DNA from: Patescibacteria group bacterium | Lineage (GTDB): Bacteria > Patescibacteriota > Patescibacteriia > Patescibacteriales > JBAZCA01 | Length of the DNA stretch: 64,000 nucleotides | Direction: 5' to 3' | Assembly (NCBI GenBank): GCA_041661505.1 | Contig: JBAZUF010000001.1 | Span: forward strand, 177,576-241,575 | Part shown: positions 4,357 to 34,729 of the stretch, one piece after another | How the letters are laid out: every line of letters begins with the position of its first letter | Position numbering within the stretch: position 1 is the stretch's first letter | Program-made: the position numbers and the translations under genes | The notes under the pieces: generated by a model | The model's input: only the letters and a program-made list of their open reading frames with translations | Databases searched by the model: none | What the model was told of the DNA's origin: nothing

Positions 4357-5094
4357 TTATCTAATCCCGCAATTTTTTACGTATTTCAAAGCAATTTTCC
4401 GAAGTCCCTCCATCTCTTTCATATTATACGCTTTTTCTCCCCGAAATCTTTCATTTACCAGTTCGGTTTCTTTTTTAAACCCCTGTAAAAACCAATTTTC
4501 CTCCCCTTTTATAAGTTTTCCCAGGGCTTCAATATCGCTTTTATCAACCAGGCCGGGAACCGCGGTCGTCCGGAATTCGCGCGCCACCCCGCTTTCCCTA
4601 ATTATTTTAATACTTTTTTTTATTTTATCCAAGCCGAACTTAATGCCGCAGGCTTTTTCATATTCTTCTGGCGCGGCCTTTAAATCCATGGCAATATAGT
4701 CAGCTAATTTTTCCTTAAAAATCCGGGAAAGCATCTTTGGGTTCGAGCCATTGGTATCCAGTTTGATGAGATAGCCGAGCTTCTTTATTTTGGCGAGGAA
4801 TTCGGGCAGGTCAGGTTGGATGGTCGGCTCTCCGCCGGTTACTACCACCCCGTCCAGCTTCCCTTTTCTTTTTTTCAGAAAATCAAAAAGATCACCCTCC
4901 TTAATTCGGGGATGACCTTCTTGCCCTTCACCTTTTGGTGAAGGATATTTTACCTTGCCTCGCCTTTTGGGCCAGACAAGCACGGGGTTGTAGCAGTAGT
5001 GGCAGCGGAAATTACAGCCCTGGGTGAAAACAATGGCTGCGATCTTTCCCGGGTAATCGAGCAAGCTGAATTTTTGTAATCCGCCGATTTCCAT
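4357..5094 (-). CDS. nrdG: Anaerobic ribonucleoside-triphosphate reductase activating protein (radical SAM)
   Basis: N-terminal FSLLDYPGKIAAIVFTQGCNFRCHYCYNP (CX3CX2C). It sits directly downstream of the nrdD ORFs, and its start overlaps the preceding stop (TAATG). Confidence 0.85.
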   Translation of the reverse strand: MEIGGLQKFSLLDYPGKIAAIVFTQGCNFRCHYCYNPVLVWPKRRGKVKYPSPKGEGQEGHPRIKEGDLFDFLKKRKGKLDGVVVTGGEPTIQPDLPEFLAKIKKLGYLIKLDTNGSNPKMLSRIFKEKLADYIAMDLKAAPEEYEKACGIKFGLDKIKKSIKIIRESGVAREFRTTAVPGLVDKSDIEALGKLIKGEENWFLQGFKKETELVNERFRGEKAYNMKEMEGLRKIALKYVKNCGIR

Positions 5095-5270
5095 TACTCA
5101 TCGCATTCTTTTACATTAAACATCTTCCGGTTGGAAAATTCCGCCTGTTTGGAATCGTTCCATTGCTGGACCGGGCGGAGATAACCGCAGACGCGGCTGT
5201 AAACTTCGCAGGGCTGTCTTTTTGTTTCGATTGGGCTCATATTTTTTCTTTTTTTGGTTTTAATTTTCAT
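5094..5270 (-). CDS. Small ORF encoding the NrdD C-terminal glycyl-radical segment (separate from the main nrdD ORF)
   Basis: Below the 60-aa track threshold. Manual translation gives MKIKTKKRKNMSPIETKRQPCEVYSRVCGYLRPVQQWNDSKQAEFSNRKMFNVKECDE. The RVCGY motif is the class III RNR glycyl-radical motif. An alternative ATG lies at 5240. Confidence 0.7.
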   Translation of the reverse strand: MKIKTKKRKNMSPIETKRQPCEVYSRVCGYLRPVQQWNDSKQAEFSNRKMFNVKECDE

Positions 5271-5342
5271 TTTTGCATGGGGAAAATTAAATCCAATATT
5301 TAATTATATATATTTAAGTAAAAATACTTCTAGGCATATTAA

Positions 5343-7556
5343 TCAGGCAAGCAGCCGGATTAAATCGCGATCCAGATTTACTTTGTCTTTTCCCGCTGAT
5401 TCGGCGCCTCTTTCTTCTCCTTTAATTCCCTGGCTAGTTTTAGGATTTTCATAACCCGCTTTCCGGCCAGGCCCATTGCCGCCGGATCCGGATTCTCTAA
5501 ATTTATCAGTCTTTAATTCAACAATCCCGTTCTCGGCGTCGCACTTGGGACAGAAATAATGTTCGCCGGCCAGGTAGCCGTGCTTGGGGCAGACCGAAAA
5601 GGTCGGAGTGATAGTAAAGTAAGGCAGATGGTAATTGTAAGCGATTTTTTTTACCAGGCTTTTAACCGATTCGGCCGAAGGCAGGGCTTCGCCGACAAAA
5701 GCGTGGAAAACCGTTCCGCCCGTATATTTGGTCTGCAGGTTGTCCTGCAAGTCCAGGGCTTCAAACATGTCGTCGGTGTAATTGACCGGCAATTGGGTCG
5801 AATTGGAATAGTAAGGCGAAGCTTTGCCGGCCATAACGTCTTTGTCGTTTGCCACGATTAATCCCGGGTATTTCTTTTTGTCCAGATTGGCGAGGCGCCG
5901 AGTTGACCCTTCGCCCGGCGTCGCTTCCAGGTTATATAGATGATTGGTGGAATTCTGGTAATCCATCATTTTCTCGCGGATGAAATTCATCATCTTGTCG
6001 GCAAAAGCTTTGCCGGCCGCGGACGTAATTGAAGCTTTGATCGGCGCGAAATTTAAAAGCGCTTCGTTCATGCCAATAATGCCGATAGTTGAAAAATGGT
6101 TGTTCCAATAGCCGCCAAAGCGCATCTTAACGCTGTCGAGATAGTGCCGGGCATAAGGATAAAGCCCGCCGTCGGTAAGATCTTCCAAAATTTTTCTTTT
6201 CATTTCCAAACTTTCTTTGGCAATTTGCATTAAATTGGACAAGCGCTCGAAAAATTCTTCTTCGGTTTTCGCGAGATACCCGATGCGGGGAAGATTGATG
6301 GTTACAACGCCGACCGAGCCGGTCAAGGGATTCGCGCCGAACAATCCGCCGCCCCTTTTTCGGAGTTCCCGGTTATCAAGGCGCAACCGGCAGCACATAG
6401 ACCGCGCGTCCTCCGGCGACATGTCCGAATTGATAAAGTTGGAAAAATACGGAATGCCGTATTTGGCGGTCATATCGAAAACTTTCATCGCCACCGGAGA
6501 ATCCCAGGCAAAATCCTTGGTTATATTGTAAGTCGGAATCGGGAAAGTAAAGACCCGCCCTTTAGCATCCCCTTCCATCATCAGCTCGGCAAAAACTTCG
6601 TTAAAAATATCCATTTCAGCCTGGAATTCCTTGTAGGTTTCTTTCTGGGGCTGACCGCCGATAATCACCGGCTCATCTCGCAAGCTCCCGGTAACTACCA
6701 AGTCCAGGGTTATATTGGTAAATGGGGTTTGGAAGCCGACCCGGGTTGGGACGTTAATATTAAATAAAAATTCCTGCAAAGACTGGCGGACTTCTTTTCG
6801 GGTTAAATTGTCGCGGCGGATAAAGGGGGCAAGATAGGTATCGAAGTTGGAAAAAGCCATAGCGCCGGCCACTTCGCCCTGCACGGTATAGAAAAAGTTA
6901 ATCACCTGGCCTAACGCGGTTCGGAAATGCTTGGCCGGCCCGGATTCGATTTTTCCCGAAACACCGCCGAATCCGCGCGTAAGCAAATCGCGCAAATCCC
7001 AGCCGGCGCAATAGGGGGCGATAATTTGCAGGTCATGCAAATGCAGATCGCCGTCTTTATGAGCCTCGCGGATATTGGCCGTATAAATTTTATTCAGCCA
7101 ATAATTCGAAGAAATATCCGAAGCGATATGGTTATTTAACCCTTGCAAGCTGTAGGACATGTTAGAATTTTCCTTTACTCTCCAGTCGGTATTATTAATG
7201 TACGAGTCAACTAGGCTCGCGTAATCAACCAAAGATTTCATGTCCCGCAGGCGCGCTCTTTGGTCGCGGTACAGGATATAAGATTTAGCGGCTTTAATCT
7301 GGCGGTTAGAAATTAAAACCTCTTCAACAATGTCCTGGACTTCCTCGACGGCCGGAATAGACCGGGCGTGGAATTTTTTGTTTAAGGTTTCGATTACGTC
7401 CGCGCTTAACTTTTTCGCCAATTCGCGGTCCGGCGCGCCGATAGCTTCGGTTGCCTTAAAAATCGCTTCAGTAATTTTTTCCGGCAAAAACGGAGCTATA
7501 TCGCCTGAACGTTTTAAAATCTGCGTTACTTTGTTTTCGACTTGCATGGGTTCCAT
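5343..7556 (-). CDS. nrdD: Anaerobic (class III) ribonucleoside-triphosphate reductase, large ORF lacking the glycyl-radical motif
   Basis: Has an N-terminal ATP-cone, the core motifs SNMSYSLQGL, CCRLRLD and NLEATPGEG, and a Zn site CPKHGYLAGEHYFCPKC. It then runs into a 60-aa low-complexity tail ending at a TGA. Confidence 0.9.
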   Translation of the reverse strand: MEPMQVENKVTQILKRSGDIAPFLPEKITEAIFKATEAIGAPDRELAKKLSADVIETLNKKFHARSIPAVEEVQDIVEEVLISNRQIKAAKSYILYRDQRARLRDMKSLVDYASLVDSYINNTDWRVKENSNMSYSLQGLNNHIASDISSNYWLNKIYTANIREAHKDGDLHLHDLQIIAPYCAGWDLRDLLTRGFGGVSGKIESGPAKHFRTALGQVINFFYTVQGEVAGAMAFSNFDTYLAPFIRRDNLTRKEVRQSLQEFLFNINVPTRVGFQTPFTNITLDLVVTGSLRDEPVIIGGQPQKETYKEFQAEMDIFNEVFAELMMEGDAKGRVFTFPIPTYNITKDFAWDSPVAMKVFDMTAKYGIPYFSNFINSDMSPEDARSMCCRLRLDNRELRKRGGGLFGANPLTGSVGVVTINLPRIGYLAKTEEEFFERLSNLMQIAKESLEMKRKILEDLTDGGLYPYARHYLDSVKMRFGGYWNNHFSTIGIIGMNEALLNFAPIKASITSAAGKAFADKMMNFIREKMMDYQNSTNHLYNLEATPGEGSTRRLANLDKKKYPGLIVANDKDVMAGKASPYYSNSTQLPVNYTDDMFEALDLQDNLQTKYTGGTVFHAFVGEALPSAESVKSLVKKIAYNYHLPYFTITPTFSVCPKHGYLAGEHYFCPKCDAENGIVELKTDKFRESGSGGNGPGRKAGYENPKTSQGIKGEERGAESAGKDKVNLDRDLIRLLA

Positions 7557-7568
7557 AAAATATTTAAT

Positions 7569-8045
7569 TTATTTTTGTTTGGTTTCCTTAGCTTTTCTCG
7601 TCAAAAGTTTATCCAGCTCCTCGGAGAATTCGTTAATGTCCTTAAACGACTGGTAGACGCTTGCAAACCGGATATAGGCTACCTTATCGATTTTTTTCAG
7701 GTGCTTCATAATTAAGTGTCCGATCTGATCCGCCGTCACTTCGCTTTTGCGCAATTTCTGTAAATCCCTTTCGATCAAATTAACGAGCTTTTTGAAACTG
7801 TCCTTGGTAATCGGCCTTTTTTCCAAAGCTTTTTTAAGTCCGTTTTCAAGCTTTTCCCGCTGATACGCCTCTTTCCGCCCGTCCCGCTTAATAACCATCA
7901 TTTCCAGGATTTCCAATTCCTCGTAAGTCGAGAACCGGAAAAGGCATTTTAAACATTCCCGCCGCCTTCTTATCGAAAAACCGTCAGAGGCCACCCTTGA
8001 GTCCACCACTTTAGTATCCTTATAGTAGCAGATGGGACACTTCAT
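7569..8045 (-). CDS. nrdR: Transcriptional repressor NrdR (zinc ribbon plus ATP-cone)
   Basis: MKCPICYYKDTKVVDSRVASDGFSIRRRRECLKCLFRFSTYE. The ATG at 8045 is preferred over 8063. Confidence 0.9.
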   Translation of the reverse strand: MKCPICYYKDTKVVDSRVASDGFSIRRRRECLKCLFRFSTYEELEILEMMVIKRDGRKEAYQREKLENGLKKALEKRPITKDSFKKLVNLIERDLQKLRKSEVTADQIGHLIMKHLKKIDKVAYIRFASVYQSFKDINEFSEELDKLLTRKAKETKQK

Positions 8046-8121
8046 GTAGTTCGTTAGACGCATATCCCTAAAGGATAACGCGTCCGAATTAAAGCCTTAT
8101 TAATTTAGTGGCCCGTCCAAT

Positions 8122-8522: not shown

Positions 8523-9230
8523 TTAAAACTTCATATACTTCTCCCAGCGCTCGTATAAAGCTTTAGTGGCGACTAAATCCCCGACATTATACCGGGCAAT
8601 GTCTAGGAAACGGCCTTCGCGAAAGAGCCCGGCTACGTCATCCCCGGAAACTCCGTACGCTTTCGGGCTTTTTATCCCAAAGGCGCGGCAATAGAGATGC
8701 AGGCTTTTATTACGGGTGGCGCCGTAAAAAGACAACTGATCCATTAAATCAATATGTTTAGCATTATTATATTTCTGGCTCCCTAAATAACGGTTAAACA
8801 TTAAATCCTGGCTTGGCCGCAGTCCATGGATGGCCGAACGGATCATTAGATACGGCGCATCAAAACCGCGCCCGTTAAAACTGATAAACTCATCGTATTT
8901 TTCCGCGACTTCCCAAAAAGTCTTCAGCATTCCCTTTTCATCCATTGGCCGGAATTTGATACCGTCTTCTTCCGAATCTTTTTCTTTTGTTCCCGGCGCC
9001 TGGTAATAGACCGCGCCCTTGTTTTTGTCGCCGTCCAAAACCCCGATAGCAACAATCTCGCCGGTTAAAGGTGAAAGGCCGAGGGTTTTTTTTATCTCGC
9101 GAACCGCGGCGTCATGCTCATCTTCCCCTTCTTCGCCTTTTATCCATTTAGTCATAACATTCTGCGTCGTTTCGTCCAGCTCGTCATAATTTTCCCCGAT
9201 AGTTTCGATGTCAAAGATTAGTTTAGGCAT
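8523..9230 (-). CDS. RNase H-fold 3'-5' exonuclease related to the PolB exonuclease domain
   Basis: MPKLIFDIETIG (ExoI DxE), ISFNGRGFDAPYL (ExoII) and HIDLMD. ATG at 9230. Confidence 0.7.
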   Translation of the reverse strand: MPKLIFDIETIGENYDELDETTQNVMTKWIKGEEGEDEHDAAVREIKKTLGLSPLTGEIVAIGVLDGDKNKGAVYYQAPGTKEKDSEEDGIKFRPMDEKGMLKTFWEVAEKYDEFISFNGRGFDAPYLMIRSAIHGLRPSQDLMFNRYLGSQKYNNAKHIDLMDQLSFYGATRNKSLHLYCRAFGIKSPKAYGVSGDDVAGLFREGRFLDIARYNVGDLVATKALYERWEKYMKF

Positions 9231-9287
9231 AGAAATTGATTTAATAATATTTAAACACCCGCCTGATGCCATTGTATGAATAATACC

Positions 9288-10514
9288 TTATTCTGACAAA
9301 TTTTTAAATTCCAAATCTTTTAGGAGAACTTCCGGGTCAACCCGCAAGGCCTCTTTGTTTATTCCCATAAGCCGCATGCCTGCCAAAGTCCTTACCCTTG
9401 AGAGCGCGACGTAGCCCATGCCGTATTCAAATGATCGCGACAAATCAATTTCCGCCGCGTCCAGGCTCATGCCCTGACTTTTATGGACCGTAATGGCCCA
9501 AGCGAGGCGCAAGGGGATCTGTGAGATTGCGGCTAAAACCGTCTCGTCTTCCTCAATTTCCCAGCTGGATGAAACGGCGACAATTTCCTTATCCGATCTG
9601 GTTTTGACAATCGGATAATTATCCTCGTTAAAACCGATTATAACGCCCAATGTTCCGTTCACGTAACCGGCGTCAAAATTATTTTTTACGAACATTACCA
9701 TGGCCCCGGTTTTTAATTTCAGTTCTTCGGGCGCCAGACAGGCTTTCTTTAAAAAATTTATAAGCTCCCGCGGGCCGCGTTCGGTCATTTTATAGGCCAG
9801 CTCTTCTCCGGCAACGCGCGAGAGTTCATAGCTGTTTATCGCGTCTACATCGGCGTTATGGGTATAAAGCTTTGTGGGTTTCGCCAGGCCGTTTATCGGC
9901 TTATAAAGCCGCTTTTTTAACATACTCATTTCATCCGCTCCGGCCTCGTTATTCCTGATCCGGTTAAGAATTCCAGTGAACGCCGAATCATCCTGCCTAA
10001 ACTGCTCGTCAAGATAGCAGACTCTTGCCTTAGCCTCTTTCCAGGCCGAGGATTCATAAGCGAACTTCGCGTCTTTATCAACCGGCGGAAGCTGAAAAAA
10101 ATCGCCGCTCATGACAATCTGGATTCCGCCGAACGGTAAAAACGGATTTTTAACCGCTTTGCATATCTCGTCCGCAAGATTAAGCCGGTCGGCGTCCAGC
10201 ATGGATATTTCATCAATAATCAGGACTTGCGCCTCTTCAATCCTTTGCCTGGTCTTTTTATTCCTAAGGATTTTACTTATTTTTTTCTGGCTTAACTTTT
10301 TCTCAATGCCGATTCCCGCCCAGGAATGGATGGTCCGGCCGCCGATATGGGTGGCGGCGATGCCGGTTGAAGCGGTAATCCCGGCCTTAGTTTTTTCATC
10401 TTTCAGCCAGCCGATGAATTTATTTATCAAAAAAGTCTTCCCCGTTCCGGCCGATCCGGTCAAAAAGACATTTTCTCCCGATTTTAATATTTTAAGGGCT
10501 TGGGATTGGGTCAT
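9288..10514 (-). CDS. Pif1/RecD-like superfamily-1 helicase
   Basis: Walker A LTGSAGTGKTF, Walker B LIIDEISML, the sequence GDFFQLPPV, and C-terminal ITVHKSQGMSLD...YVALSRVR. The ATG at 10514 is used because the track start at 10535 is a TTG. Confidence 0.85.
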   Translation of the reverse strand: MTQSQALKILKSGENVFLTGSAGTGKTFLINKFIGWLKDEKTKAGITASTGIAATHIGGRTIHSWAGIGIEKKLSQKKISKILRNKKTRQRIEEAQVLIIDEISMLDADRLNLADEICKAVKNPFLPFGGIQIVMSGDFFQLPPVDKDAKFAYESSAWKEAKARVCYLDEQFRQDDSAFTGILNRIRNNEAGADEMSMLKKRLYKPINGLAKPTKLYTHNADVDAINSYELSRVAGEELAYKMTERGPRELINFLKKACLAPEELKLKTGAMVMFVKNNFDAGYVNGTLGVIIGFNEDNYPIVKTRSDKEIVAVSSSWEIEEDETVLAAISQIPLRLAWAITVHKSQGMSLDAAEIDLSRSFEYGMGYVALSRVRTLAGMRLMGINKEALRVDPEVLLKDLEFKNLSE

Positions 10515-10560
10515 TGGTAGTGAATTACTTCTCAATAATACTATAGCCTACAAAACAAGA

Positions 10561-10609: not shown

Positions 10610-11464
10610 CTAAACCGCGTAACTAAATAACCGATTTGACGCGCTTCTAAATATCTCCTCGGTCTTTTTATCGTCAACTTTCTTAGTTCCGTATTTTATA
10701 TGGTAGTCAATGTTATTCTTCATGCAAAAATTAATCACAATACCCGCTTGCTCCTCGTAAAAATTCTTATTACTTCCGAAATCCGAAACTTTTACGTTAT
10801 AATTCAGCTTGCCAAAAATTATTTTATCAACGAATTTTATTTCCTTCAATATCGTCGTTAAATCCTGCTTTACAAGATTGGGTGTTGGATAAGGCTCCAT
10901 GCTCACCCAGGTTTTAAGGCCATTGTCGTGTAAATATTTCAAGGATTTTATCCGCTCGTTATACGGCGCCGCCCCCGGTTCAAATCTTTTCTTAAAATTA
11001 TCGTCCAGCGAAACCAAAGTTATCGCGTATTCATTGTTTTTTCCGTAAATATCCGAATCAACTAAGTCTTTCGGGTAAATCCCTTTAGTAAGCACGGTGC
11101 ATTTAATATTGTCTTGATTAAACCTTTTAATGATTTTTAGGGTTAACTCACCGATTTCATTTTGGCCGTACATAAACGGGTCGGTGGTAAAACATAAATG
11201 TACGAATTTAATCTTGTCTTTCAGCCTGGGAATTTCTTCATCCAGAAGTTCCAGCGCGTTTTCCACGATTTTCGGCTTAATCCAGTCGTCATAATCTTTT
11301 ATCACCCCGCATCTTTTTTTCATATTCATGGCGTAGCAGGGAAAGCGGCAGCCATGCGAACACCCTTCTGCGTGGTTAACGCAATAATCAGCGTACTCAA
11401 CGCCGCTTTTATAGAGAAGTGATTTTCGTTGAATTTTTTTAAGCATGAGGATGTCAGTTTTCAT
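10610..11464 (-). CDS. Radical-SAM-like three-Cys protein with non-canonical CX3CX3C spacing (DNA-repair-photolyase/SplB-like or Gp37/Gp68-like; family uncertain)
   Basis: Contains VNHAEGCSHGCRFPCYAM near the N-terminus and has the length and pattern of a TIM-barrel-like protein. It lies 11 nt downstream of the TcmP-like gene. ATG at 11464. Confidence 0.55.
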   Translation of the reverse strand: MKTDILMLKKIQRKSLLYKSGVEYADYCVNHAEGCSHGCRFPCYAMNMKKRCGVIKDYDDWIKPKIVENALELLDEEIPRLKDKIKFVHLCFTTDPFMYGQNEIGELTLKIIKRFNQDNIKCTVLTKGIYPKDLVDSDIYGKNNEYAITLVSLDDNFKKRFEPGAAPYNERIKSLKYLHDNGLKTWVSMEPYPTPNLVKQDLTTILKEIKFVDKIIFGKLNYNVKVSDFGSNKNFYEEQAGIVINFCMKNNIDYHIKYGTKKVDDKKTEEIFRSASNRLFSYAV

Positions 11465-11475
11465 TATACCATGTT

Positions 11476-12597
11476 TTATAAAAACTCTATAACACAGCAT
11501 TCGTTAGGAAATGTGCCTAATCGAGGCTTGCAAGTACCATTTTTAAGACACACATCGCACCTTCTTCTCAATTCCGGCTCTGTCGCTTTTTCCATTTTTG
11601 CCAGAATATTACTTTTATAATGAGTTTCCCTAAAAGGTGTTTTTGTTATTATAAAATATTCTAGATCGCTAATTTTTACTAACTTATTTTTAAAATTATT
11701 TATTAATATTTTTTTAAGTAAATAAAAATTCGGCTTATTCGAGAATAGGATTGCTTGCGAAGGATTGTAAGTGGCGTCAGAAAATTCAAAAGCTCCAGTT
11801 TCGTCAATCTTCCACATAGCTTCTTTTATCTTTTTCAAACCAAGGATATTATTAGTGCCAAAAAATAGGAAATAGTCGTCTTTATTCATTTTATTTTTCA
11901 TTTTAAATGAACGTACAAATTTTACACCAGCTTCATTTTTAAGCTGATCGCGATAAATGTTATGAAGCATCTCCGATCTTTGTTTCGAATCTTTCTCGGA
12001 AATAACCGCTTTCCAAGTGTCCGTCCCAAAAGTTTCTTCTAATGAAGGCCATAATTTCTCCAATCCAATAAACCTGTTAATTTCCTCATACATAAAAGTA
12101 ATCATCACCTCGCATTTTTGATTTTCCATAATCCTTTTTATCAAGTCTAATGGTATGCCGGTAAATCCAAAAGGATCTATAAAAACCAAGGCTGGAGCAA
12201 TTTTTTTCTTCTGCTCTTCAAGTAAATTTAATACTTCGGATAAAGTTTTATCAAACTCACCATGCTTAACGGTTATATTTATATTTTTCGGCTTATCCAG
12301 GGATGCAACCATTTTTTCTAAATGCTCACAGCGCTTGGCGTCTTTTTCTATAAAAAATAAAATCATCTCCGATGAAATTGGAAATTTATGTTTTATTATA
12401 GCTTCAAAAGCAATCATTGGCGATCCCGGCTTTCCTCCAATATATTCGCCTGGTCCGGCAAATCCATCAATAAATAAAACCCGGCCATTCCATCTTGTTA
12501 TTATCGGAAGCCATGCGTTTAAATATTTTTGCAATATTTTATGCTTGGCTTCCGTATGAGGTTCCAATTTCCAAATAGTAGGGGCTATTTTTGACAT
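11476..12597 (-). CDS. TcmP-like (three-Cys-motif partner) protein with methyltransferase-like Rossmann motifs
   Basis: The N-terminus is WKLEPHTEAKHKILQKYLNAWLPI. FIDGFAGPGEY resembles SAM-MTase motif I, and VFIDPFGFTG resembles motif IV (DPPY-like). The gene is visibly more AT-rich than the flanking core genes. Confidence 0.5.
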   Translation of the reverse strand: MSKIAPTIWKLEPHTEAKHKILQKYLNAWLPIITRWNGRVLFIDGFAGPGEYIGGKPGSPMIAFEAIIKHKFPISSEMILFFIEKDAKRCEHLEKMVASLDKPKNINITVKHGEFDKTLSEVLNLLEEQKKKIAPALVFIDPFGFTGIPLDLIKRIMENQKCEVMITFMYEEINRFIGLEKLWPSLEETFGTDTWKAVISEKDSKQRSEMLHNIYRDQLKNEAGVKFVRSFKMKNKMNKDDYFLFFGTNNILGLKKIKEAMWKIDETGAFEFSDATYNPSQAILFSNKPNFYLLKKILINNFKNKLVKISDLEYFIITKTPFRETHYKSNILAKMEKATEPELRRRCDVCLKNGTCKPRLGTFPNECCVIEFL

Positions 12598-12623: not shown

Positions 12624-12980
12624 TTATAAATTTTGAACTTGATCACCCCAGAAATGCTTCTTTAAATAACTTTCAACTTGCTTGATAATTTTTTCATCAG
12701 CTTTTCCTATTTTATGGATAAATCTTGATTTATCATAACTAATTATATGATGCGCTTTAATGATCGAATCTTCGCGCAATCTATTGCTTAAGTCTTTTTT
12801 AATATTGATGTCGTCCCAATGGTAGCGGCCGGAAGAGGATAATGGCATAATTGTTACCACGCTCGCAGAGTTAATAATGTCATTCGCCATTATAATAAGC
12901 GCGGGGCGGTCATTAAAATATTCATGTCCGACGCTTTTTTCCTCAACCAATTTAATGAGCCATATTTCCCCCTTCTTCAT
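12624..12980 (-). CDS. MazF/PemK-family endoribonuclease toxin
   Basis: MKKGEIWLIKL...VGHEYFNDRPALIIMAND...VVTIMPLSS...IISYDKSRFIHKIGK follows the PemK pattern (GDIW..., GHE, RPxlivs, vxvxPlTs, ID+xRl). Confidence 0.8.
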   Translation of the reverse strand: MKKGEIWLIKLVEEKSVGHEYFNDRPALIIMANDIINSASVVTIMPLSSSGRYHWDDINIKKDLSNRLREDSIIKAHHIISYDKSRFIHKIGKADEKIIKQVESYLKKHFWGDQVQNL

Positions 12981-12986
12981 ATTTGA

Positions 12987-13733
12987 TTACTTTAAATTTC
13001 TATAATAATCAGCTTCTGCTTCCGATATCGGCCCTAAAGCCTTAAGGGCGTCGTTACCGGCGGCATCCTGCATGACGGAAAACTCTTTGGAAAAAAACGA
13101 ACTCTTAATTACGTTTTTCACTAAGCCGTTAATCATGTAATCGTCGTCGGCATGGATATATATCGGCTTAAAGGCTTCCGTTGATTCGGAAACGAGCGCG
13201 ATCTGTTTTTCCTTTTTATCCAAAAAAAACTTTTTTATATTCGCGCACCCTTCAATCACCGACAACACATAATCTCCGTTGCGCGGATTTTTATTGGCCG
13301 GGTCAACTAATACATAATCGCCGTCCTCTATTGTCTGCGCGCCGTTAACCTTAGCGCGGTTCATTGAGTGGCCTTTGGCGCGCACGGCGAAAACATTTTT
13401 TATTTTGCCAACTAAGCGCCGCGACACTCTTAAATAGCCTTCTAAATTTTCCTCGGCAAAAAATTTTGCTTCTCCGCAATCAGCCGCGCCGTAAATCGGC
13501 ACTACCACAATTTCATTATTGCTTTGCTTTGTTTTTAAACCAACCAATCTCACTTCTCCGGTCTTTTTGTCCGTCTCAATAAACCCCTTCTTTTCCAACT
13601 GACTTAAATGATGGCTTATCTTTTGCGGATGACTTTCTTCAACGAGTAAACCAATGTCCCTCAAGCTCATTTTTTTCAGATTGATCTTGGGAACAATTTT
13701 TAATAATTTTTCCTGTATAGGATGTATGCGCAT
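12987..13733 (-). CDS. LexA-type repressor: N-terminal winged HTH plus S24 autopeptidase domain, with a 45-aa C-terminal tail
   Basis: SLRDIGLLV...ISHHLSQLEKKGFI (wHTH). VPIYGAADCGEA is a LexA cleavage-region analogue. AKGHSM carries the Ser nucleophile and CANIKKF the Lys. Confidence 0.75.
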   Translation of the reverse strand: MRIHPIQEKLLKIVPKINLKKMSLRDIGLLVEESHPQKISHHLSQLEKKGFIETDKKTGEVRLVGLKTKQSNNEIVVVPIYGAADCGEAKFFAEENLEGYLRVSRRLVGKIKNVFAVRAKGHSMNRAKVNGAQTIEDGDYVLVDPANKNPRNGDYVLSVIEGCANIKKFFLDKKEKQIALVSESTEAFKPIYIHADDDYMINGLVKNVIKSSFFSKEFSVMQDAAGNDALKALGPISEAEADYYRNLK

Positions 13734-13753: not shown

Positions 13754-13762
13754 TTATCCACA
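13754..13762. promoter_or_regulatory. Perfect DnaA box TTATCCACA abutting the -10 of the LexA-like promoter
   Basis: Exact 9-mer match. Confidence 0.4.
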
Positions 13763-13790
13763 GTTTATGCCAAGATTATTATTTTGTCAA
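13762..13790 (-). promoter_or_regulatory. Candidate promoter for the LexA-like operon
   Basis: The minus strand reads TTGACA (13790-13785), a 17-nt spacer, then TAAACT (13767-13762). A second in-phase candidate is TTGACA (13801-13796), N17, TAATCT. Confidence 0.45.
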
Positions 13791-13812
13791 GTTTTTGTCA
13801 AGATTTTATAAT
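13784..13812 (+). promoter_or_regulatory. Candidate promoter for the plus-strand small gene
   Basis: TTGTCA (13784-13789), a 17-nt spacer, then TATAAT (13807-13812). Confidence 0.5.
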
Positions 13813-13832
13813 ATACAGTCAAGCCTCTTGAC
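13784..13832. promoter_or_regulatory. Operator-like array: direct repeats TTGTCAAG x2 (11-bp period) plus palindrome GTCAAG-cct-CTTGAC
   Basis: TTGTCAAG at 13784-13791 and 13795-13802; GTCAAGCCTCTTGAC at 13818-13832. GTCAAG starts fall at 13786, 13797 and 13818, i.e. 11-bp and 21-bp phasing. The array overlaps both divergent promoters. Confidence 0.55.
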
Positions 13833-13940
13833 AAGAGTATAAATGATGCCGTAAGCTCAAAGGTGAAGTACTTTTCTCGCTACCCGGGAGCGAGTTAATT
13901 AACCTGCCGGAGCCCGGGACAATGGCTAAAATATACGAAA

Positions 13941-14213
13941 ATGAATACTATTTTAATTTCGTATGATTTACGCGCGCCAGGAAAAGATTATTCCTCTCTT
14001 TGGAACTATCTTGAATCCTTCAAAAACTGGGCGAAGCCGCTTGAATCAGTTTGGCTGATAAGAACGACTTATAATGCTGAGCGATTCCGAAATGACGCGC
14101 TTAATCATATTGATTGGAATGATAAAATTTTTGTAGTGGATGTTACCAGCAGACCCTCAGCTTGGAAAAATCTTACGGCTGAAGTGGTGGGGTGGATAGG
14201 AATGACATTATGA
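13941..14213 (+). CDS. Hypothetical 90-aa protein (only plus-strand gene in the window)
   Basis: ATG ORF MNTILISYDLRAPGKDYSSLWNYLESFKNWAKPLESVWLIRT.... It has its own promoter, a 120-nt leader with the hairpin ctcgct-acccggg-agcgag, and a convergent terminator. Confidence 0.55.
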   Translation: MNTILISYDLRAPGKDYSSLWNYLESFKNWAKPLESVWLIRTTYNAERFRNDALNHIDWNDKIFVVDVTSRPSAWKNLTAEVVGWIGMTL

Positions 14214-14736: not shown

Positions 14737-17613
14737 TTATTTTCCCTCTACCACTTTTATTTCCTCCTCCCCCAATCCGTAAAGCTCAAAAACCTCCTCG
14801 TCAATTTTTTTATCGGTTCTGGCGATTTCGTCTTTGAGCTTGCGCCAATCATCGGAATTTTCAGTTAATTCGCTAAGTTTTTTGTTTAATTCCAACATTT
14901 TATCAACCCAAATTGCTATTTGTTCTTGTTGTTTTTCATTCCCAATACAAATTGGAATTTGCTGTAAAGGCTCCGTATCAATTTGAAACATATCTCCTTG
15001 AAGTTTACCTTTTTGTTTTAGCCAGAAACAAATAAGTTTTGAATTTAACAATCCGACGAGGTATTTTAAATTTACCTTATCTGTTTTTATAATATTAAAA
15101 GTTAACATCACATAACAATCATCTTCCGTATATGAAAATGTTGGAACTTTACATTTTCTAACAGAAATTATTTTCGGGCCTTTCTCAAAATATTTTAGAT
15201 TTCTTGGCCAATGTAAATTATAATATTTAATAGAACCACTTAAATTTTTCCTGCGCTCCTCCATTATTGGCCTATATTTATTCAAATGTTGTAGAAGTGT
15301 TGAATTCTCTGATACTTTTTCATTTTTTGGGATATAAATCAATTCTTTATCATTATTTTTATCAAATTTATATCTTCCGATTTGACCCGTATCAAAAAGT
15401 GGTTTTATGTATTTCTTCTCTGGTTCAGAAATATTCAAGTAATTTTTAGGGATTACGAAAACTCCGTCGTTAATGTTTATGTTGAATTGTTTTACATAAT
15501 TATCAGGTATTTTTTTAATATTTCTGGCATTTATTATGTCTGGATTAGGAACAATCCCCTGTGTTAAATCGTCATTAGCAAAATAATAATTTGCTTTCTG
15601 AATTATCTTGTTTAAAATTTGGTCTAATTCTACTGTTGAAAAAGTTATATTTTTTCCAATCAATTTTTGCGGTTCAATTTCAATTTTATTTTTACCAAAG
15701 AACATCTCAGCTACCAATTTTTCCTCAGAAATATCTTTGTCCGTGATTCGCAAGTATTCTACCAAATATTTTTCTTGAGGTTTATTTTTTTCAAAGACAA
15801 AAACCATTGTCTGAATTCCAGCCTGTTTAAAAACTTTATAATCGCCAAAATCTATAAAAGTCCTTAATTCGCCTTCGTTTAAAATTTTATCTCTAAAAAT
15901 ACTTGCTCCATAATTTGAAATCCAGCTATTTGGGGCAATAAAACTTAAAAAACCGTTTGGTTTTAGCAGATCAATGCTAACGCATCCAAACATAGTCCAG
16001 ATATCCATTTTACCTTGATAGTACGGGCTATTATGGAGTCCCTTAAAAGCTTCCTTATTTGCATCTTCCTTAATATACGGCGGATTACCGATAACGCAAT
16101 CAAAACCGCCTTGTTTGAATACCTCGGGAAATTGTTCCTGCCAGTTAAATGGGAGCTTGTCGCGATAATTCTTGCCGAAATATTTTATTAGCTCTTCGTC
16201 CGGGCCGGAAATGAGCGAGTTGCCGTTTTTGATGTTCCCGCCTAAATTCGGCAGTTTTGTCTGGCTGTCAAAAGTGTTTAATAAGAGGTTTAGGCGCGCC
16301 AGTTCCACGGCCTGCTGATCAAGGTCAACTCCGTAAATATTATTCTGCAAGATCTGAATTTTTAATAAGCCATTAGACTTGGAGCCGAATTCCTCGTACT
16401 TTTTTATTAGAAAATTCATCGCCGCGACTAAAAATGAGCCCGAACCGCAGGCCGGATCAAGAATTTTTATTTTTTGGAGATCGTTTATGCTTTTGCACTT
16501 ATCCAAAACCGGACCAAGCGCGTTTTGTACGATATAATCCACGATGAATTTTGGCGTGTAGTAGATGCCCTGCTCCTTGCGTTTTTTCAGGTTCTTGCCC
16601 GCGGCTTCTTCCTTTTTGGATTTTTTCAGCTGATGGCCGAGATAATTTTCATAGACATTGCCTAAAACATCAGCCGGAATTACCGAAAAATCGTATTCAA
16701 AATAATTTTTCTTGCCGTGCAATATGTCAATTACTTTTTCGGTGGCGCCGCTAAACTCTTCCCACTTTTCAAAAGGATGTTCGTCAAAAAGATTGGAATT
16801 ATAAATAACGTCAAGCTCCCGAAATTTTTTTACCATAGCCAAATACGGGCTAATTTCGCCGGCCTTGCCGCTCGACCGGTATTCATGGATTAACGGCATA
16901 AGCGTCGGCGGTTCAATTTTCCGATCCTCGGCCGACCGGATGAATATGAGCCGATTTAATAGTTTTTGTACTCCCTCGTCAATAAGATGTGGGTCAACTT
17001 TATCGTTCCATTGGGAAAAAGCCTCGGTAAGAATTATGCGACAGTCGTTTAAATCCTTGGACAAAGTTTCCGTAACCGATACTTTTTGCAGCTTCTTTCC
17101 AACTTTTTCCGCTTCTTTGTCTAAAATATCCTCGCTGAAAGCTTCTTTTGAAAGTCGCCAGAGTTCATCAAAGCGGGCTAAATACTCTTCATGGGTAAAA
17201 GACAAATATTTTTTTCCGGCCAGAGTCTTTTCCGGCGACAACGCGTTAAATACTATGAGGCCTTCAAAGTCGGTAAGAACCGCCCAGGTTGCTCCTTTAT
17301 TCCAGGAATAACGAATGGCCTGTTTGGCAAAATCTTCGCGATTTAGGTCGGCCGACAATTTTTTCGCCTCCAGGTAAAACTTTATCCGGCCATTAAGGTA
17401 AAAGCCATAATCCACCCGGTCGCCGGAAATCTGCTCCTCGGCCGTAACTTCCATTTTATCATGAACATTCCAGCCCAAAGCCTCGAACAGCGGCTGAATA
17501 AAACCGATTTTAGTTTCCTCTTCACTGTAAGTTTTTATCTTGCCTAAGTCAACCACTTCCCGGTATTTATCCACCAGCCGTTTTATCTTGTCCTTGGCTT
17601 CTTTCCTGTCCAT
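14737..17613 (-). CDS. Type IIG/IIL restriction-modification fusion enzyme (PD-(D/E)xK nuclease plus N6-adenine methyltransferase plus specificity domain)
   Basis: The N-terminal DRVDYGFYLNGRIKFYLEAKK is a D...ExK nuclease motif. Motif I is ILDPACGSGSFLVAA and motif IV is VIGNPPYIKE. A long AT-rich C-terminal TRD-like region follows. Confidence 0.85.
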   Translation of the reverse strand: MDRKEAKDKIKRLVDKYREVVDLGKIKTYSEEETKIGFIQPLFEALGWNVHDKMEVTAEEQISGDRVDYGFYLNGRIKFYLEAKKLSADLNREDFAKQAIRYSWNKGATWAVLTDFEGLIVFNALSPEKTLAGKKYLSFTHEEYLARFDELWRLSKEAFSEDILDKEAEKVGKKLQKVSVTETLSKDLNDCRIILTEAFSQWNDKVDPHLIDEGVQKLLNRLIFIRSAEDRKIEPPTLMPLIHEYRSSGKAGEISPYLAMVKKFRELDVIYNSNLFDEHPFEKWEEFSGATEKVIDILHGKKNYFEYDFSVIPADVLGNVYENYLGHQLKKSKKEEAAGKNLKKRKEQGIYYTPKFIVDYIVQNALGPVLDKCKSINDLQKIKILDPACGSGSFLVAAMNFLIKKYEEFGSKSNGLLKIQILQNNIYGVDLDQQAVELARLNLLLNTFDSQTKLPNLGGNIKNGNSLISGPDEELIKYFGKNYRDKLPFNWQEQFPEVFKQGGFDCVIGNPPYIKEDANKEAFKGLHNSPYYQGKMDIWTMFGCVSIDLLKPNGFLSFIAPNSWISNYGASIFRDKILNEGELRTFIDFGDYKVFKQAGIQTMVFVFEKNKPQEKYLVEYLRITDKDISEEKLVAEMFFGKNKIEIEPQKLIGKNITFSTVELDQILNKIIQKANYYFANDDLTQGIVPNPDIINARNIKKIPDNYVKQFNININDGVFVIPKNYLNISEPEKKYIKPLFDTGQIGRYKFDKNNDKELIYIPKNEKVSENSTLLQHLNKYRPIMEERRKNLSGSIKYYNLHWPRNLKYFEKGPKIISVRKCKVPTFSYTEDDCYVMLTFNIIKTDKVNLKYLVGLLNSKLICFWLKQKGKLQGDMFQIDTEPLQQIPICIGNEKQQEQIAIWVDKMLELNKKLSELTENSDDWRKLKDEIARTDKKIDEEVFELYGLGEEEIKVVEGK

Positions 17614-17697
17614 AAGTTTTGATTATTGAATAATCATTTCTTCCTTAAAATTAGCATTTTTTTGCCTTAAAATCAACTACATCCACTTTAAAAACCC

Positions 17698-18438
17698 TCA
17701 CAAATCCCTCTCATCCCACATCCTCACCAATTCCCCCTCCCAGCCAAAGCAGGTTGATTGTTTGCAAAGTTGTTCAAATGTCTTCAGGCAGTTCGGATCT
17801 ATTTTGACGAATTCCACAAGGATTTGAACAGCTTCCTGGATAAACCCGCCAACCGTGCCGTCTGAATCGTCAACGCCGCCGGTGCATAATTTTTTATCCA
17901 GCCTCAAAAGCAGTTTTACGAGGAGATCGGCCGTTTGCGTGCTTACTGGTAATTTGGAAACGACTTCACTTAACAGATTACAGCCTTCGGAAAGTGAATT
18001 TTGATAGGCAAACCAAGTTCGCGAAGGGCCAGTGTAAGACTTAATCAGCCGCGCGGCCGCGGAAATTTCTTTTTTTACTTCCGCCGTTTCTTCTTTTGTC
18101 AGAATTCCTAAACGCCCGCTCAATCTCACTTCACCGACCGGCTCTTTATCTTCTTCTTTTATTTTCTTGCCTTTAAGCACCGCCTGAAGCGCTAGGGCGA
18201 CCATGTGCTTGCATAAAACATCTTTTTCCCCGAGATAACAATCACAATGCCCCTGATTAAAATGTCTTGCCGATACCGAAACCTGATAAGACTTCCCTCC
18301 GAGTACTAAAGCCGAGTAGCCGCTAACATCTTCACCAAAGCGAGTCACTTTTCTTTTTTCATATAAAGCCATCGCTCTTTCAAAAGTCGGCCGATCGGTT
18401 ACATACTTAATTTTTTTAAAATCGTAGCTGGGCATCAT
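17698..18438 (-). CDS. SWIM zinc-finger protein
   Basis: GHCDCYLGEKDVLCKHMVALAL matches the CxC...CxH SWIM signature. Confidence 0.7.
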   Translation of the reverse strand: MMPSYDFKKIKYVTDRPTFERAMALYEKRKVTRFGEDVSGYSALVLGGKSYQVSVSARHFNQGHCDCYLGEKDVLCKHMVALALQAVLKGKKIKEEDKEPVGEVRLSGRLGILTKEETAEVKKEISAAARLIKSYTGPSRTWFAYQNSLSEGCNLLSEVVSKLPVSTQTADLLVKLLLRLDKKLCTGGVDDSDGTVGGFIQEAVQILVEFVKIDPNCLKTFEQLCKQSTCFGWEGELVRMWDERDL

Positions 18439-19360: not shown

Positions 19361-20545
19361 TTACATCATCTTCTTCCGAATAAAGGCTGGGATGGAAAGT
19401 TCATCATCTTCTTCCTGGTAATCGTTTTTCTTCCGGGCCGGTTCGGCCTGGGCCTGCTTTAAGGAGGAAACTTTGGATTTCTTCCGCTCCGGCACGACAA
19501 ATTCTTTTAGCTCGTCTTTTCTTTCTTCTGACGATAGAAAGGGGCTGGGAGTATAGATCCGTTCTTTAACCTCGCCTTCCCTTTTTCCGGATTTATAGTC
19601 AAAACCGGTGGCGACGACCGTAATTTTTACTTCATCTTTCATTTTTTCGTCAATCACCGCGCCAAAAATTATTTTCGCTTCTTCGTCGGCCGAAGCGGTG
19701 ATTACCTTGGCGGCTTCGGAGACTTCGGACATGGACAAGGTTGTTCCGCCGGTTATGGTAAATAGTATTCCGCGAGCGCCTTCAATTGATAGTTCTAAAA
19801 GCGGCGAATTAATCGCCATCTTGGCGGCTTCAATCGCTTTGTTTTCTCCTGAAGCCTGGCCGATTCCCATTAAGGAAGATCCGGCGTTGGACATAACGGC
19901 TTTAACATCGGCAAAGTCGACGTTTATCAGGCCCGGGATGGTAATTACGTCGGAAATGCCCTGGACGCCTTGGCGCAGGACATCGTCAACAACATTAAAG
20001 GCGTCCAATAGGGAGGTTTTTTTATCGATAACTTGCAATAGTTTGTCATTGGGAATAGTAATAATCGTATCTACCTTGTCAATCAGTTCGGCCAGTCCGC
20101 GCTCGGCGATATTTTTCCTTTGCGACCCTTCAAATTGAAACGGCTTGGTAACGACGGCGACCGTAAGGGCGCCCAAATCTTTTGCCAGTTCGGCAACGAC
20201 CGGCGCGGCTCCGGTTCCGGTTCCGCCTCCTAATCCGCAAGTGATAAAAACCATATCCGAATCTTTAAGAATATCGCGGATTTCGTTTTGGGATTCTTCG
20301 GCCGCGTGCCGTCCCAGCTCCGGGTTCATCCCGGCCCCGAGCCCCCGGGTAACGGCTTTGCCGATATGCAATTTTTTTGAAGCTTTATTATAATGCAATG
20401 CCTGGACGTCGGTATTTACGGCAATAAATTCGACTCCTTTGACTCCAGCGTCAACCATCCGGTTGATGGCGCTCCCGCCGCCGCCGCCAACGCCAATAAC
20501 CTTGATTTTGGCAATGGTTTCAATTGCTGGTTTGACTTCAGGCAT
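19361..20545 (-). CDS. ftsZ: Cell division GTPase FtsZ
   Basis: [17 protein letters not shown], the tubulin signature [13 protein letters not shown], and NVDFADV. Confidence 0.97.
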
Positions 20546-20699
20546 ATTTTTATTGGGTTTTATGAGTTATTTTAGGTATGATAAGTTTAAACTATTCCCA
20601 AAAATATTGCAAGACCCTTAATTAACGCATAAATTCAAAATTTGAGGCCGGGATTCTGTCCCGCGATTCCTTCGTATTTTTTCTTTATTTGCCCGTCTT

Positions 20700-21965
20700 T
20701 TAAGGCATTAAAGAGGACATCCACCGCTTAATTTTATCGACTGATTTTCCGACTGCCTGCCCGCTCCGCGTCCAGTCCAGTTTCCGGCCTTTTTCCTGAT
20801 CTAGAGCCTGGTTGCCCCAAACCGCTAACCCCAGGGCGGTTAAATAATTTACGTCTTCCACTTTGTCGATAACGGTCGACGCGACGCGGTTAGTTCCCAA
20901 ACAGGCCGGCAGGCGAAGTTTCTTTTTAGCCGATTCGACGATATGGGATAATTTCGCCCCGCCGCCGACTAAAAAGACTCCGGCCGGAAGCATCCCCGAG
21001 CGGTCGATTTTTTTAAATTCAGCGTCGATTTTTTCAAATATTTCGTCCACCCGCGCTTCGATAATTTCTGAAATGTATTTTTGGGAAACGGTTGTTTCTC
21101 CGTCGTTTTCCCCTTCCTCGACCAAAGCGCTGATATCGATTTCGTCTTTTTTGGAATATTGGTCCGGCTTGGCCGATCCGAATTCGATTTTAATTTTTTC
21201 GGCAAGATTAATAGGGCATCGCAGTCCGATGGCAATGTCGGCGGTTATATGCTCGGAGCCAAGGGGAATGACGGCCGTATGCAAAAGTTCGCCTTCTTCA
21301 AAGACTGCCAGGCTGGTGGTAGATGACCCGATATTTACTAAAGCCGCGCCCAGCTCTTTTTGCTTCGGGTTGATTACCGCTTCGGCCGAAGCCAAAGGCG
21401 ATAAAACCAAATCTTCTATTTCCAGGCCGGTTCGGTAAATAGCTTTAGTTAAATTCTTGATTTGGGAAGTTAATCCCTGGATAATCAGGGTTTCCACTTC
21501 TAAACGGACCCCGGTCATTCCGATCGGATCCTTTATTTCTTCCTGGTTATCGACCGTAAACTTGACCGGAATAACGTGCAAAATTTCATAATTCGGGGGA
21601 ACGGAAAGAGCCCGCGCCGCCTCGAGCGCCCGCTCGACGTCATCCGGCGTAATTTCACCGTCAGACTTGCCGACCGCGACAACGCCCCGGCTTTTTTCGC
21701 ATTTAATATTAGGGAAATTTATTCCCACCCAAACGCTTTTAACCGGCGAGCCGACGAGCCTTTCGGCTTTTTCTAAACAAGCCGAAATTGAAGACGTCGC
21801 ATCCTCAATCGAATTTACAATCCCGCGGCTAATCCCTTCAGTCGGGACTTCTACGGCGCCGATAATCTGGAAGTTTTTCTCTTCCCGGCTGATACTCTTT
21901 TGTCCGATTACCAAACGTATACTGGCCGAGCCAATATCTAATCCGGCGATAATATTTTCTCTCAT
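20700..21965 (-). CDS. ftsA: Cell division protein FtsA (actin-like ATPase)
   Basis: IIAGLDIGSASIRLVIG, VNIGSSTTSLAVF and LVGGGAKL. It lies immediately upstream of ftsZ. Confidence 0.9.
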   Translation of the reverse strand: MRENIIAGLDIGSASIRLVIGQKSISREEKNFQIIGAVEVPTEGISRGIVNSIEDATSSISACLEKAERLVGSPVKSVWVGINFPNIKCEKSRGVVAVGKSDGEITPDDVERALEAARALSVPPNYEILHVIPVKFTVDNQEEIKDPIGMTGVRLEVETLIIQGLTSQIKNLTKAIYRTGLEIEDLVLSPLASAEAVINPKQKELGAALVNIGSSTTSLAVFEEGELLHTAVIPLGSEHITADIAIGLRCPINLAEKIKIEFGSAKPDQYSKKDEIDISALVEEGENDGETTVSQKYISEIIEARVDEIFEKIDAEFKKIDRSGMLPAGVFLVGGGAKLSHIVESAKKKLRLPACLGTNRVASTVIDKVEDVNYLTALGLAVWGNQALDQEKGRKLDWTRSGQAVGKSVDKIKRWMSSLMP

Positions 21966-31932: not shown

Positions 31933-31936
31933 TACA

Positions 31937-34729
<2,793 letters not shown>

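Follow-up and report, generated by a model that had tools for sequence, protein, structure and literature searches.

A MazF toxin gene preceded by a LexA-like repressor gene with a probable antitoxin module at its 3′ end in Patescibacteria

What neutralizes a MazF toxin whose only upstream partner is a LexA-like repressor? The question is raised by a gene pair of a Patescibacteria group bacterium (GenBank assembly GCA_041661505.1, contig JBAZUF010000001.1). The window, that is, the whole stretch of DNA analyzed, is 64,000 nucleotides (nt) long and spans positions 177,576 to 241,575 of this contig. As a first-pass annotation made from the letters had noted, an open reading frame (ORF) for a PemK-like toxin starts 6 nt after the stop codon of a gene for a winged helix-turn-helix and S24 peptidase protein, and both ORFs are indeed present (Table 1). 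The same annotation had found no MazE-sized antitoxin. This holds insofar as the ORF list has no separate small ORF of at least 30 amino acids (aa) beside mazF on the minus strand, but an antitoxin-sized module is fused to the LexA-like protein. The pair is probably a type II toxin-antitoxin (TA) module of the MazF type, whose antitoxin is a LexA-like repressor carrying a C-terminal antitoxin peptide of about 30 aa. The arrangement is that of type II TA genes, namely an adjacent, co-oriented, and tightly coupled pair kept across genomes in varying contexts.

Is the downstream protein a MazF? It matches PemK_toxin (PF02452) over the whole model (1-109 of 109) with 71.2 bits against a cut-off of 23.1, and it matches MazF9 in the Protein Data Bank (PDB) by sequence. 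Its AlphaFold2 model has a predicted local distance difference test (pLDDT) value of 87. Foldseek gave at least 50 matches, and all among the matches listed are MazF-family toxin structures with template modeling (TM) scores of 0.75-0.83 (about 0.80). They include PDB 7DU5, in which MazF-mt1 is bound to only an antitoxin fragment (TM 0.80). In the aligned MazFs, Arg25 (DRPALII) is conserved at a level of at least 90%, and a PL(T/S)S(N/S) motif, which is PLSSS in the window, is visibly conserved. I take Arg25 and the Thr/Ser of P-x-T/S-S to be residues of the MazF catalytic loop, from knowledge of the family rather than from structural superposition. The MazF clade is small (50 clusters). One LexA-linked MazF (L042, 1184-1735) has a Cys-rich, zinc-ribbon-like C-terminal extension of about 70 aa.

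The upstream protein matches Peptidase_S24 (PF00717) at residues 79-205 with 67.4 bits (cut-off 23.3) and LexA_DNA_bind with 19.2 bits, under the cut-off of 23.7. Its AlphaFold2 model (pLDDT 83) comprises a winged helix (residues 1-63), a floppy linker, the S24 core (residues 75-209), and two terminal helices. The N-terminal domain is modeled as three helices and a beta-wing (pLDDT 81-91). Its recognition-helix motif, PQKIxHHLxQLxKKG, is identical in homologues with and without the C-terminal extension (hereafter tailed and untailed), and Q37, K38, H41, H42, Q45, and L46 are invariant or near-invariant columns among 78 sequences. Cys86-Gly87, Ser123, and Lys167 were placed by alignment to E. 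coli LexA structures, and their codons were checked by hand on the DNA. The scissile pair is Cys-Gly as in UmuD. None of the 63 tailed proteins (59 unique) deviates at Ala84, Cys86, Gly87, Ser123, or Lys167, and the invariance of Cys86 and Gly87 extends to all 78 tailed and untailed proteins. The first-pass annotation had recognized the Ser/Lys dyad and a LexA-like loop and had proposed an unusual TA logic in which self-cleavage has a part. These residues do align to those of E. coli LexA, and the premise of that logic gains support from their invariance. As judged from its sequence, the antitoxin is probably self-cleaving.

What is added to the LexA-like body? The alignment to LexA stops at residue 211 and the S24 core of the AlphaFold2 model ends at residue 209, so that the extension is about 37-39 aa long, shorter than the 45 aa given by the first-pass annotation. 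Homologues fall into two length classes: the shorter, of about 211 aa, aligns with 84% of the query, and the longer, of about 244-249 aa, with the whole query. In the alignment, the tail is cleanly missing from the former and persists in the latter down to about 50% overall identity. The model has tail helices at residues 212-233 and 238-245 (pLDDT 61-78). The module within the tail is about 30 aa in length, with the consensus Q-x-A-[AS]-x-x-D-x-L-K-x-L-G-P-I-S-K-x-E-x-x-Y-Y-x-N-L or, in a shorter form, ...D-x-L-K-x-L-G-P-I-S-K-x-E-Y-D-Y-Y-x-N-L. No Pfam or NCBIfam family matched the module, nor did any antitoxin family match the whole protein. In pairs of sister loci, the synonymous divergence of the module (pS 0.57-0.66) is far above the nonsynonymous divergence (pN 0.05-0.22). 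Thus, the tail is conserved as a protein and not as an embedded nucleotide signal. Purifying selection acts on the module and the core alike.

Does the tail go together with mazF? One genome per GTDB species was scanned for lexA, which gave 80 lexA-like loci of Patescibacteria, 17 tailed and 63 untailed, and a MazF profile search was run over all ORFs of these loci. A mazF gene lies directly after the stop codon of every tailed gene (17 of 17, in 17 GTDB species), at a distance of -22 to +127 nt. By contrast, in the 4-kb surroundings of the 63 untailed lexA genes, the profile search found no PemK gene. By Fisher's test, which was not corrected for shared ancestry, this co-occurrence is far above chance. 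The tailed pair is kept to about 45% identity across many lineages. Its neighborhood varies from locus to locus, and MazF is the sole constant neighbor. At most other loci, the two genes share a 4-nt overlap (ATGA) and are out of frame, whereas the window has an in-frame gap of 6 nt. Read-through of the antitoxin stop codon in the window (AAG TAA TCA AAT ATG, 12978-12989) would yield a LexA-antitoxin-MazF fusion.

Is the module confined to LexA-like proteins? Upstream of MazFs that are 38-45% identical to that of the window, and overlapping them by 4 nt, lie genes for proteins of 281-360 aa with HTH_3 and SocA_Panacea (PanA) domains, and one Nanoarchaeota contig has a 45-aa ORF upstream of MazF. 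A 48-column profile of the LexA tail matches the extreme C-termini of the PanA proteins (E = 4.6e-15 to 1.9e-7). The PanA protein of L086 ends with ...KDVLKELGPISKKEYDYYENL, and its module (residues 326-360) lies outside the Panacea domain (residues 192-303). Among 5.8 billion proteins searched with the module profile, 32 of 43-90 aa have little beyond the module. The genes for P0190 (46 aa) and P0200 (87 aa) each overlap the downstream PemK gene by 4 nt. A metagenome scan for the module on whatever scaffold gave 65 loci, 49 of which have a MazF after the module. The carrier is a LexA-like protein at 14 of these loci (12 followed by MazF), a helix-turn-helix (HTH)-PanA protein at 27 (25 followed by MazF), a small protein of up to 110 aa at 18 (6 followed by MazF), and a 137-aa protein at 3, while the module ORF is cut at the contig end at another 3; MazF follows in all cases of the last two types. 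The MazF tree mixes the partner types. In summary, the tail is a portable module seen alone, on HTH-Panacea, and on LexA, with at least three unrelated carriers upstream of the same MazF lineage.

Since the tail is the module of the stand-alone and PanA antitoxins upstream of the same MazF lineage, a MazE-sized antitoxin appears to be present after all, fused to LexA. These sequences strongly suggest that MazF is neutralized through the tail. The first-pass annotation had proposed that the S24 protein is the partner of MazF, possibly via its tail, and both the co-occurrence of tail and mazF and the sharing of the module speak for this proposal. It had also named beforehand a pairing unique to this genome as a point against itself. 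The pairing of an S24 repressor with PemK recurs in 17 GTDB species and at 12 of the 14 tailed metagenome loci.

How would such a repressor find its own promoter? The 207-nt upstream region has two promoter-like sites back to back, one on the minus strand for the lexA-like gene (13790 to 13762) and one on the plus strand for a divergent 90-aa ORF (13784 to 13812). TTGTCAA/TTGACAA repeats and a GTCAAG-N3-CTTGAC palindrome form the basis of both sites. The inverted TTGTCAA...TTGACAA layout is common to tailed and untailed lexA promoters, mostly with a spacing of 25-26 or 33-35 nt, and the second half-site of the inverted repeat doubles as the -35 element. Since the promoter layout and the recognition helix are shared, the chimera and the resident LexA probably recognize the same sites.

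What would the chimera do in the cell? The module would very likely bind and block the MazF dimer, as MazE-type C-terminal segments do, while the LexA body would dimerize and bind the TTGTCAA/TTGACAA repeats of its own promoter for autoregulation. Upon RecA-stimulated cleavage at Cys86-Gly87, the repressor would leave the DNA and latent degrons would be exposed, whereupon the fragment of the S24 core and the tail would be degraded and MazF would be freed. I regard this second step as nearly balanced, with some leaning toward doubt. DNA damage, or damage induced by a phage, would thereby be wired to growth arrest, and the setting in a defence island fits an abortive-infection or stress-arrest role. 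Taken as a whole, the gene may encode a naturally self-cleaving antitoxin, in which RecA on damaged or phage single-stranded DNA (ssDNA) triggers autoproteolysis, fragment decay, and MazF release. Sensor, protease, and inhibitor would then reside in one polypeptide with a tie to the SOS regulon, which here may also gate the downstream TcmP/radical-SAM genes. This complete scenario is possible but tentative.

Several points weigh against these interpretations. The window protein misses the lexA equivalog cut-off of NCBIfam TIGR00498 (84 vs 110.95 bits), and for this reason it is termed LexA-like and not LexA. The Fisher p value of 1e-17 for the co-occurrence of tail and mazF ignores shared ancestry; the association counts take in related loci, and the collections overlap somewhat (for example, L119 and L042 are apparently the same 112,311-bp contig). 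The model confidence of the module is moderate, and a module-profile search of PDB sequences with E up to 10 found no solved antitoxin. Eleven small module ORFs and 2 of the 14 tailed LexA genes have no MazF, and among the GTDB loci, mazF is frameshifted in L034 and cut short in L061. The loci without an intact MazF have decayed mazF stubs, as in L121 and L127, or are orphans with mutually unrelated downstream genes, and no alternative conserved partner was found after the orphan module ORFs. No recA gene was found in the window. The trees and tests differ as to whether the fusion occurred once or several times. In a neighbor-joining tree of the LexA core, tailed proteins form at least two groups, with 0 of 100 bootstraps for a tailed/untailed split. 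In contrast, Mantel tests give similar correlations between the divergences of the module, the core, and MazF (r = 0.56-0.61). Finally, after a cut at Cys86-Gly87 the module would still be part of the S24 fragment, and toxin release would therefore need an extra degradation step. Cleavage alone would not free MazF and might only derepress transcription.

Some observations were made along with these searches. The only PDB sequences that matched the module profile were designed alpha-helical repeat proteins, judged to be spurious matches to an AAxDALGxIGD-type helix-turn. The two tailed LexA genes without MazF are L112 3106-3912 and L094 3123-3872. By sequence inspection, one of them is followed by a homologue of dinD, an SOS gene of E. 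coli, and the other by a gene for a 249-aa NERD-like protein. In L090, a 45-aa module ORF lies directly before a gene for a 576-aa PIF1 helicase, in the place of MazF. In a Giovannonibacteria metagenome-assembled genome (L091, 1524-3114), a gene for an SDH_protease (PF01972, 324 aa) stops 2 nt before the gene for an 87-aa module antitoxin that overlaps MazF, so that a protease adjoins the module there as well.

Could the chimeric antitoxin work without any damage-triggered release? The LexA body would then be a dimeric DNA-binding scaffold, and its cleavage would derepress the operon and make it SOS-inducible, while the S24-tail fragment would keep MazF neutralized. The toxin would be released in the usual ways, by loss of the locus or by a block of synthesis. 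It is known that TA transcription often rises under stress while the toxin stays bound. As the site at residues 86-87 precedes both the S24 core and the module, a cut there keeps these two together, and the promoter repeats common with untailed lexA suggest a transcriptional role. On the other hand, LexA-like proteins are reported to carry degrons in both of the parts that flank the cut, and both parts are destabilized only once autocleavage has taken place (PMC5742171). The retention of Ser, Lys, and Cys-Gly in all tailed proteins implies that cleavage matters, although it does not indicate for what purpose. With all this, I consider a chimera acting through transcription in this manner rather unlikely.

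It is far less credible that the protein is an ordinary housekeeping LexA, with mazF just a downstream gene of the SOS regulon under transcriptional control only and with a tail that serves oligomerization or stability and has nothing to do with MazF. The recognition helix and the promoter layout are as in untailed lexA, the divergent 90-aa neighbor also flanks an untailed lexA in L010, and no second lexA was found within the 64-kb window. However, at the GTDB loci the tail was seen only with mazF, and the same module ends PanA antitoxins and accounts for most of the length of 46-aa proteins that precede MazFs of this lineage. Moreover, PCVT01 is the one genome that demonstrably has the two forms, L013 being untailed and L056 tailed with MazF. 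About 18 untailed genes lie in conserved synteny, with flanking genes that look like housekeeping ones by sequence inspection (phosphoketolase, acetate kinase, MscL, and P-type ATPase), while the tailed genes do not. As for a decaying remnant with an inactive MazF, in which linkage alone has kept the genes together, the frameshift, the truncation, and the stubs at the four loci named above are visible decay, but such a remnant is hard to reconcile with a window MazF of full length that has Arg25, PLSSS, and the MazF fold (pLDDT 87), with purifying selection on module and core, and with a pair kept in so many lineages, and is thus very improbable.

The reading of the pair as a MazF TA module with a LexA-like antitoxin can be compared with known systems. 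As in MazEF, PemIK, and Kis-Kid, the toxin has the PemK/MazF fold, and the antitoxin gene precedes that of the toxin, with the translation of the two coupled. The antitoxin likewise seems to consist of a DNA-binding part and a C-terminal toxin-binding segment, and in PDB 7DU5 an antitoxin fragment suffices to bind MazF. In contrast to these systems, the DNA-binding part is a whole LexA-like repressor of 210 aa with an intact S24 domain, not an AbrB/RHH/Phd-type domain of about 40-50 aa, and at the sequence level the module does not detectably resemble any MazE, PemI, or Kis of solved structure.

With LexA, UmuD, and lambda CI, the protein shares the Cys/Ala-Gly site, the Ser-Lys dyad, and, as modeled, a winged helix, and its promoter has inverted repeats. 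Differences from LexA are that the window protein is under the NCBIfam equivalog cut-off and that one genome at least has an untailed LexA besides the chimera. AlpR and PrtR of Pseudomonas are LexA-like repressors of self-lysis or bacteriocin genes, in which a damage-sensitive repressor that is inactivated by proteolysis gates a harmful function. The COG2856/ImmA-ImmR protease-linked Xre modules are alike in this respect (Makarova 2009, PMC2701414). Unlike the chimera, AlpR/PrtR and ImmA-ImmR act at the level of transcription or through a separate protease and are not known to have a toxin-neutralizing peptide fused to the repressor. Toxins controlled by DNA damage are known from the LexA-regulated tisB-istR, symER, yafNO, and dinJ-yafQ (PMC1891008, PMC7826846). 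There, LexA represses transcription only and is not known to contact the toxin protein, while in the window the putative antitoxin peptide is part of the repressor chain.

The Panacea antitoxins (PanA, DUF4065; Kurata 2022, PMC8832971; Ernits 2023, PMC10440598) are the other close parallel. In these, separate elements such as C-terminal Phd-C helices neutralize the toxin, and the large globular domain is accessory or a sensor (PMC10440598). The module of the window also ends HTH-PanA proteins paired with sister MazFs. However, the window protein has no SocA_Panacea (PF13274) match, and its large domain is a LexA-type autopeptidase. The signal of the S24 family (RecA filaments on ssDNA) is known, while that of Panacea is not known. 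Neither LexA nor S24 is mentioned in the main text of the two Panacea papers. Full-text literature searches, which did not cover subscription journals, gave no description of a LexA/S24-antitoxin fusion. Two leads were discarded: an S24/LexA-like antitoxin in Campylobacter was a mere TADB domain label on an Xre/HipA prediction, and in a prophage with S24 and MazF genes, the genes were unlinked.

The upstream region of the lexA-like gene has further features. A DnaA box with at most one mismatch was found in the promoters of 44 of the 63 untailed lexA genes and of 11 of 18 tailed ones, and the inverted repeats TTGTCAA and TTGACAA usually enclose it. These copies may reflect a DnaA input to lexA expression or may belong to the LexA box that these bacteria use. 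Around 13873-13900, a G+C-rich hairpin, CTCGCT...AGCGAG, is followed by AAAAGTACT and is kept in L002, where it likewise precedes the lexA-like gene. Scanning the upstream region for Rfam families and tRNAs gave nothing significant, the hairpin included. The divergent 90-aa ORF has no Pfam, NCBIfam, or PADLOC match. A 47%-identical homologue lies in the same divergent position beside the untailed lexA of L010 (3478-3753). This ORF is a candidate SOS-regulated gene, and its position gives a hint that the window copy may sit at the ancestral lexA locus.

In which genomic setting does the pair reside? It sits between a type IIG restriction-modification enzyme gene and a candidate defence pair of TcmP (three-Cys-motif partner) and radical-SAM genes (PDC-M30A), which begins 26 nt past mazF. 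The first terminator-like site after mazF lies past the radical-SAM gene (10592-10565). With no terminator-like site in between, the TA genes are possibly co-transcribed with PDC-M30A, and in this genome only, PDC-M30A may be under the control of the chimeric repressor. Both the stand-alone-antitoxin locus L092 and the PanA locus L087 have MmeI/Eco57I-type enzymes beside them as well. The recurrence of such type IIG/MmeI-type neighbors indicates a tendency of this MazF lineage to reside in defence islands. PIF1-type helicases recur as well near loci of the module or MazF (cluster c22 in L034 and L068). The island in the window is bracketed by core genes and is thus chromosomal, not on a plasmid or phage.

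Table 1. Features of the window around the lexA-like gene and mazF (position 1 is the first letter of the window).
Feature	Position	Strand	Basis or remark
LexA-like + S24 + C-terminal module gene, 248 aa, ATG start	12987..13733	-	ORF; Pfam, NCBIfam, and PDB LexA matches; AlphaFold2 pLDDT 83
PemK/MazF-family endoribonuclease toxin gene, 118 aa, ATG start	12624..12980	-	ORF; Pfam PF02452; AlphaFold2
Junction TCAAAT, 6 nt, from antitoxin TAA stop to mazF ATG	12981..12986	-	Sequence; both ORFs in the same frame
C-terminal extension, residues 212-248, two-helix module ...MQDAAGNDALKALGPISEAEADYYRNLK	12990..13100	-	Putative MazF-neutralizing element
Predicted winged helix-turn-helix domain, residues 1-63	13545..13733	-	AlphaFold2 helices (H) and strands (E): H5-12, H24-30, H36-48, E52-54, E60-63
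S24 peptidase core, residues 75-209	13107..13511	-	PF00717; model pLDDT 85-94
Predicted self-cleavage site Cys86-Gly87 (TGC GGA), loop GAADCGEA	13473..13478	-	Aligned to E. coli LexA Ala84-Gly85
Ser123 (AKGHSM)	13365-13367	-	Aligned to E. coli LexA Ser119
Lys167 (NIKKF)	13233-13235	-	Aligned to E. coli LexA Lys156
Promoter and candidate operator region	13754..13835	.	Repeats, promoter-like sites; putative operator
TTGTCAA repeats	13784-13790, 13795-13801		
Palindrome GTCAAG-CCT-CTTGAC	13818-13832		
TTGACAA	13828-13834		
DnaA-box-like TTATCCACA (TGTGGATAA on the gene strand)	13754-13762		Perfect consensus
90-aa ORF divergent from the lexA-like gene	13941-14213	+	Promoter-like site overlaps the repeats
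TcmP gene overlapping radical-SAM gene	10610-12597	-	TIGR04474 227 bits; PADLOC PDC-M30A 230 bits
Type IIG restriction-modification enzyme (958 aa) and SWIM-zinc-finger protein (PDC-S62-like)	14737-18438	-	PADLOC 357 bits (enzyme); upstream of the pair
PIF1-family helicase (415 aa) and PolB-exonuclease-like protein	8523-10535	-	Beyond the island
Core genes nrdR, nrdD, radical-SAM activase	4357-8063		One side of the island
Core genes ftsZ, ftsA	19361-21965		Other side of the island
2287-aa ORF	25111-31974		

What does the pair mean for TA biology and for these bacteria? Whether and how type II toxins ever come free of their antitoxins inside cells has long been disputed, and the usual model invokes antitoxin degradation by housekeeping proteases under ill-defined stress. 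Here, the putative antitoxin peptide is on a domain whose trigger and chemistry, the RecA-stimulated self-cleavage of LexA, count among the best understood in bacteria, which makes it a directly testable natural design, in which the substitutions S123A, K167A, and G87D would be expected to lock the switch off. An antitoxin with a built-in trigger would be of interest to specialists of both TA systems and the SOS response. The finding extends the idea derived from Panacea, that is, a portable toxin-specific neutralizing peptide combined with an exchangeable sensor or regulatory domain. Patescibacteria have not yet been grown in pure culture, and this analysis gives a first view of their lexA promoters and of a candidate SOS-linked defence island. 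As the recognition helix and the promoter repeats are shared with the resident LexA, the chimera would become part of the SOS regulon in these bacteria with their reduced genomes.

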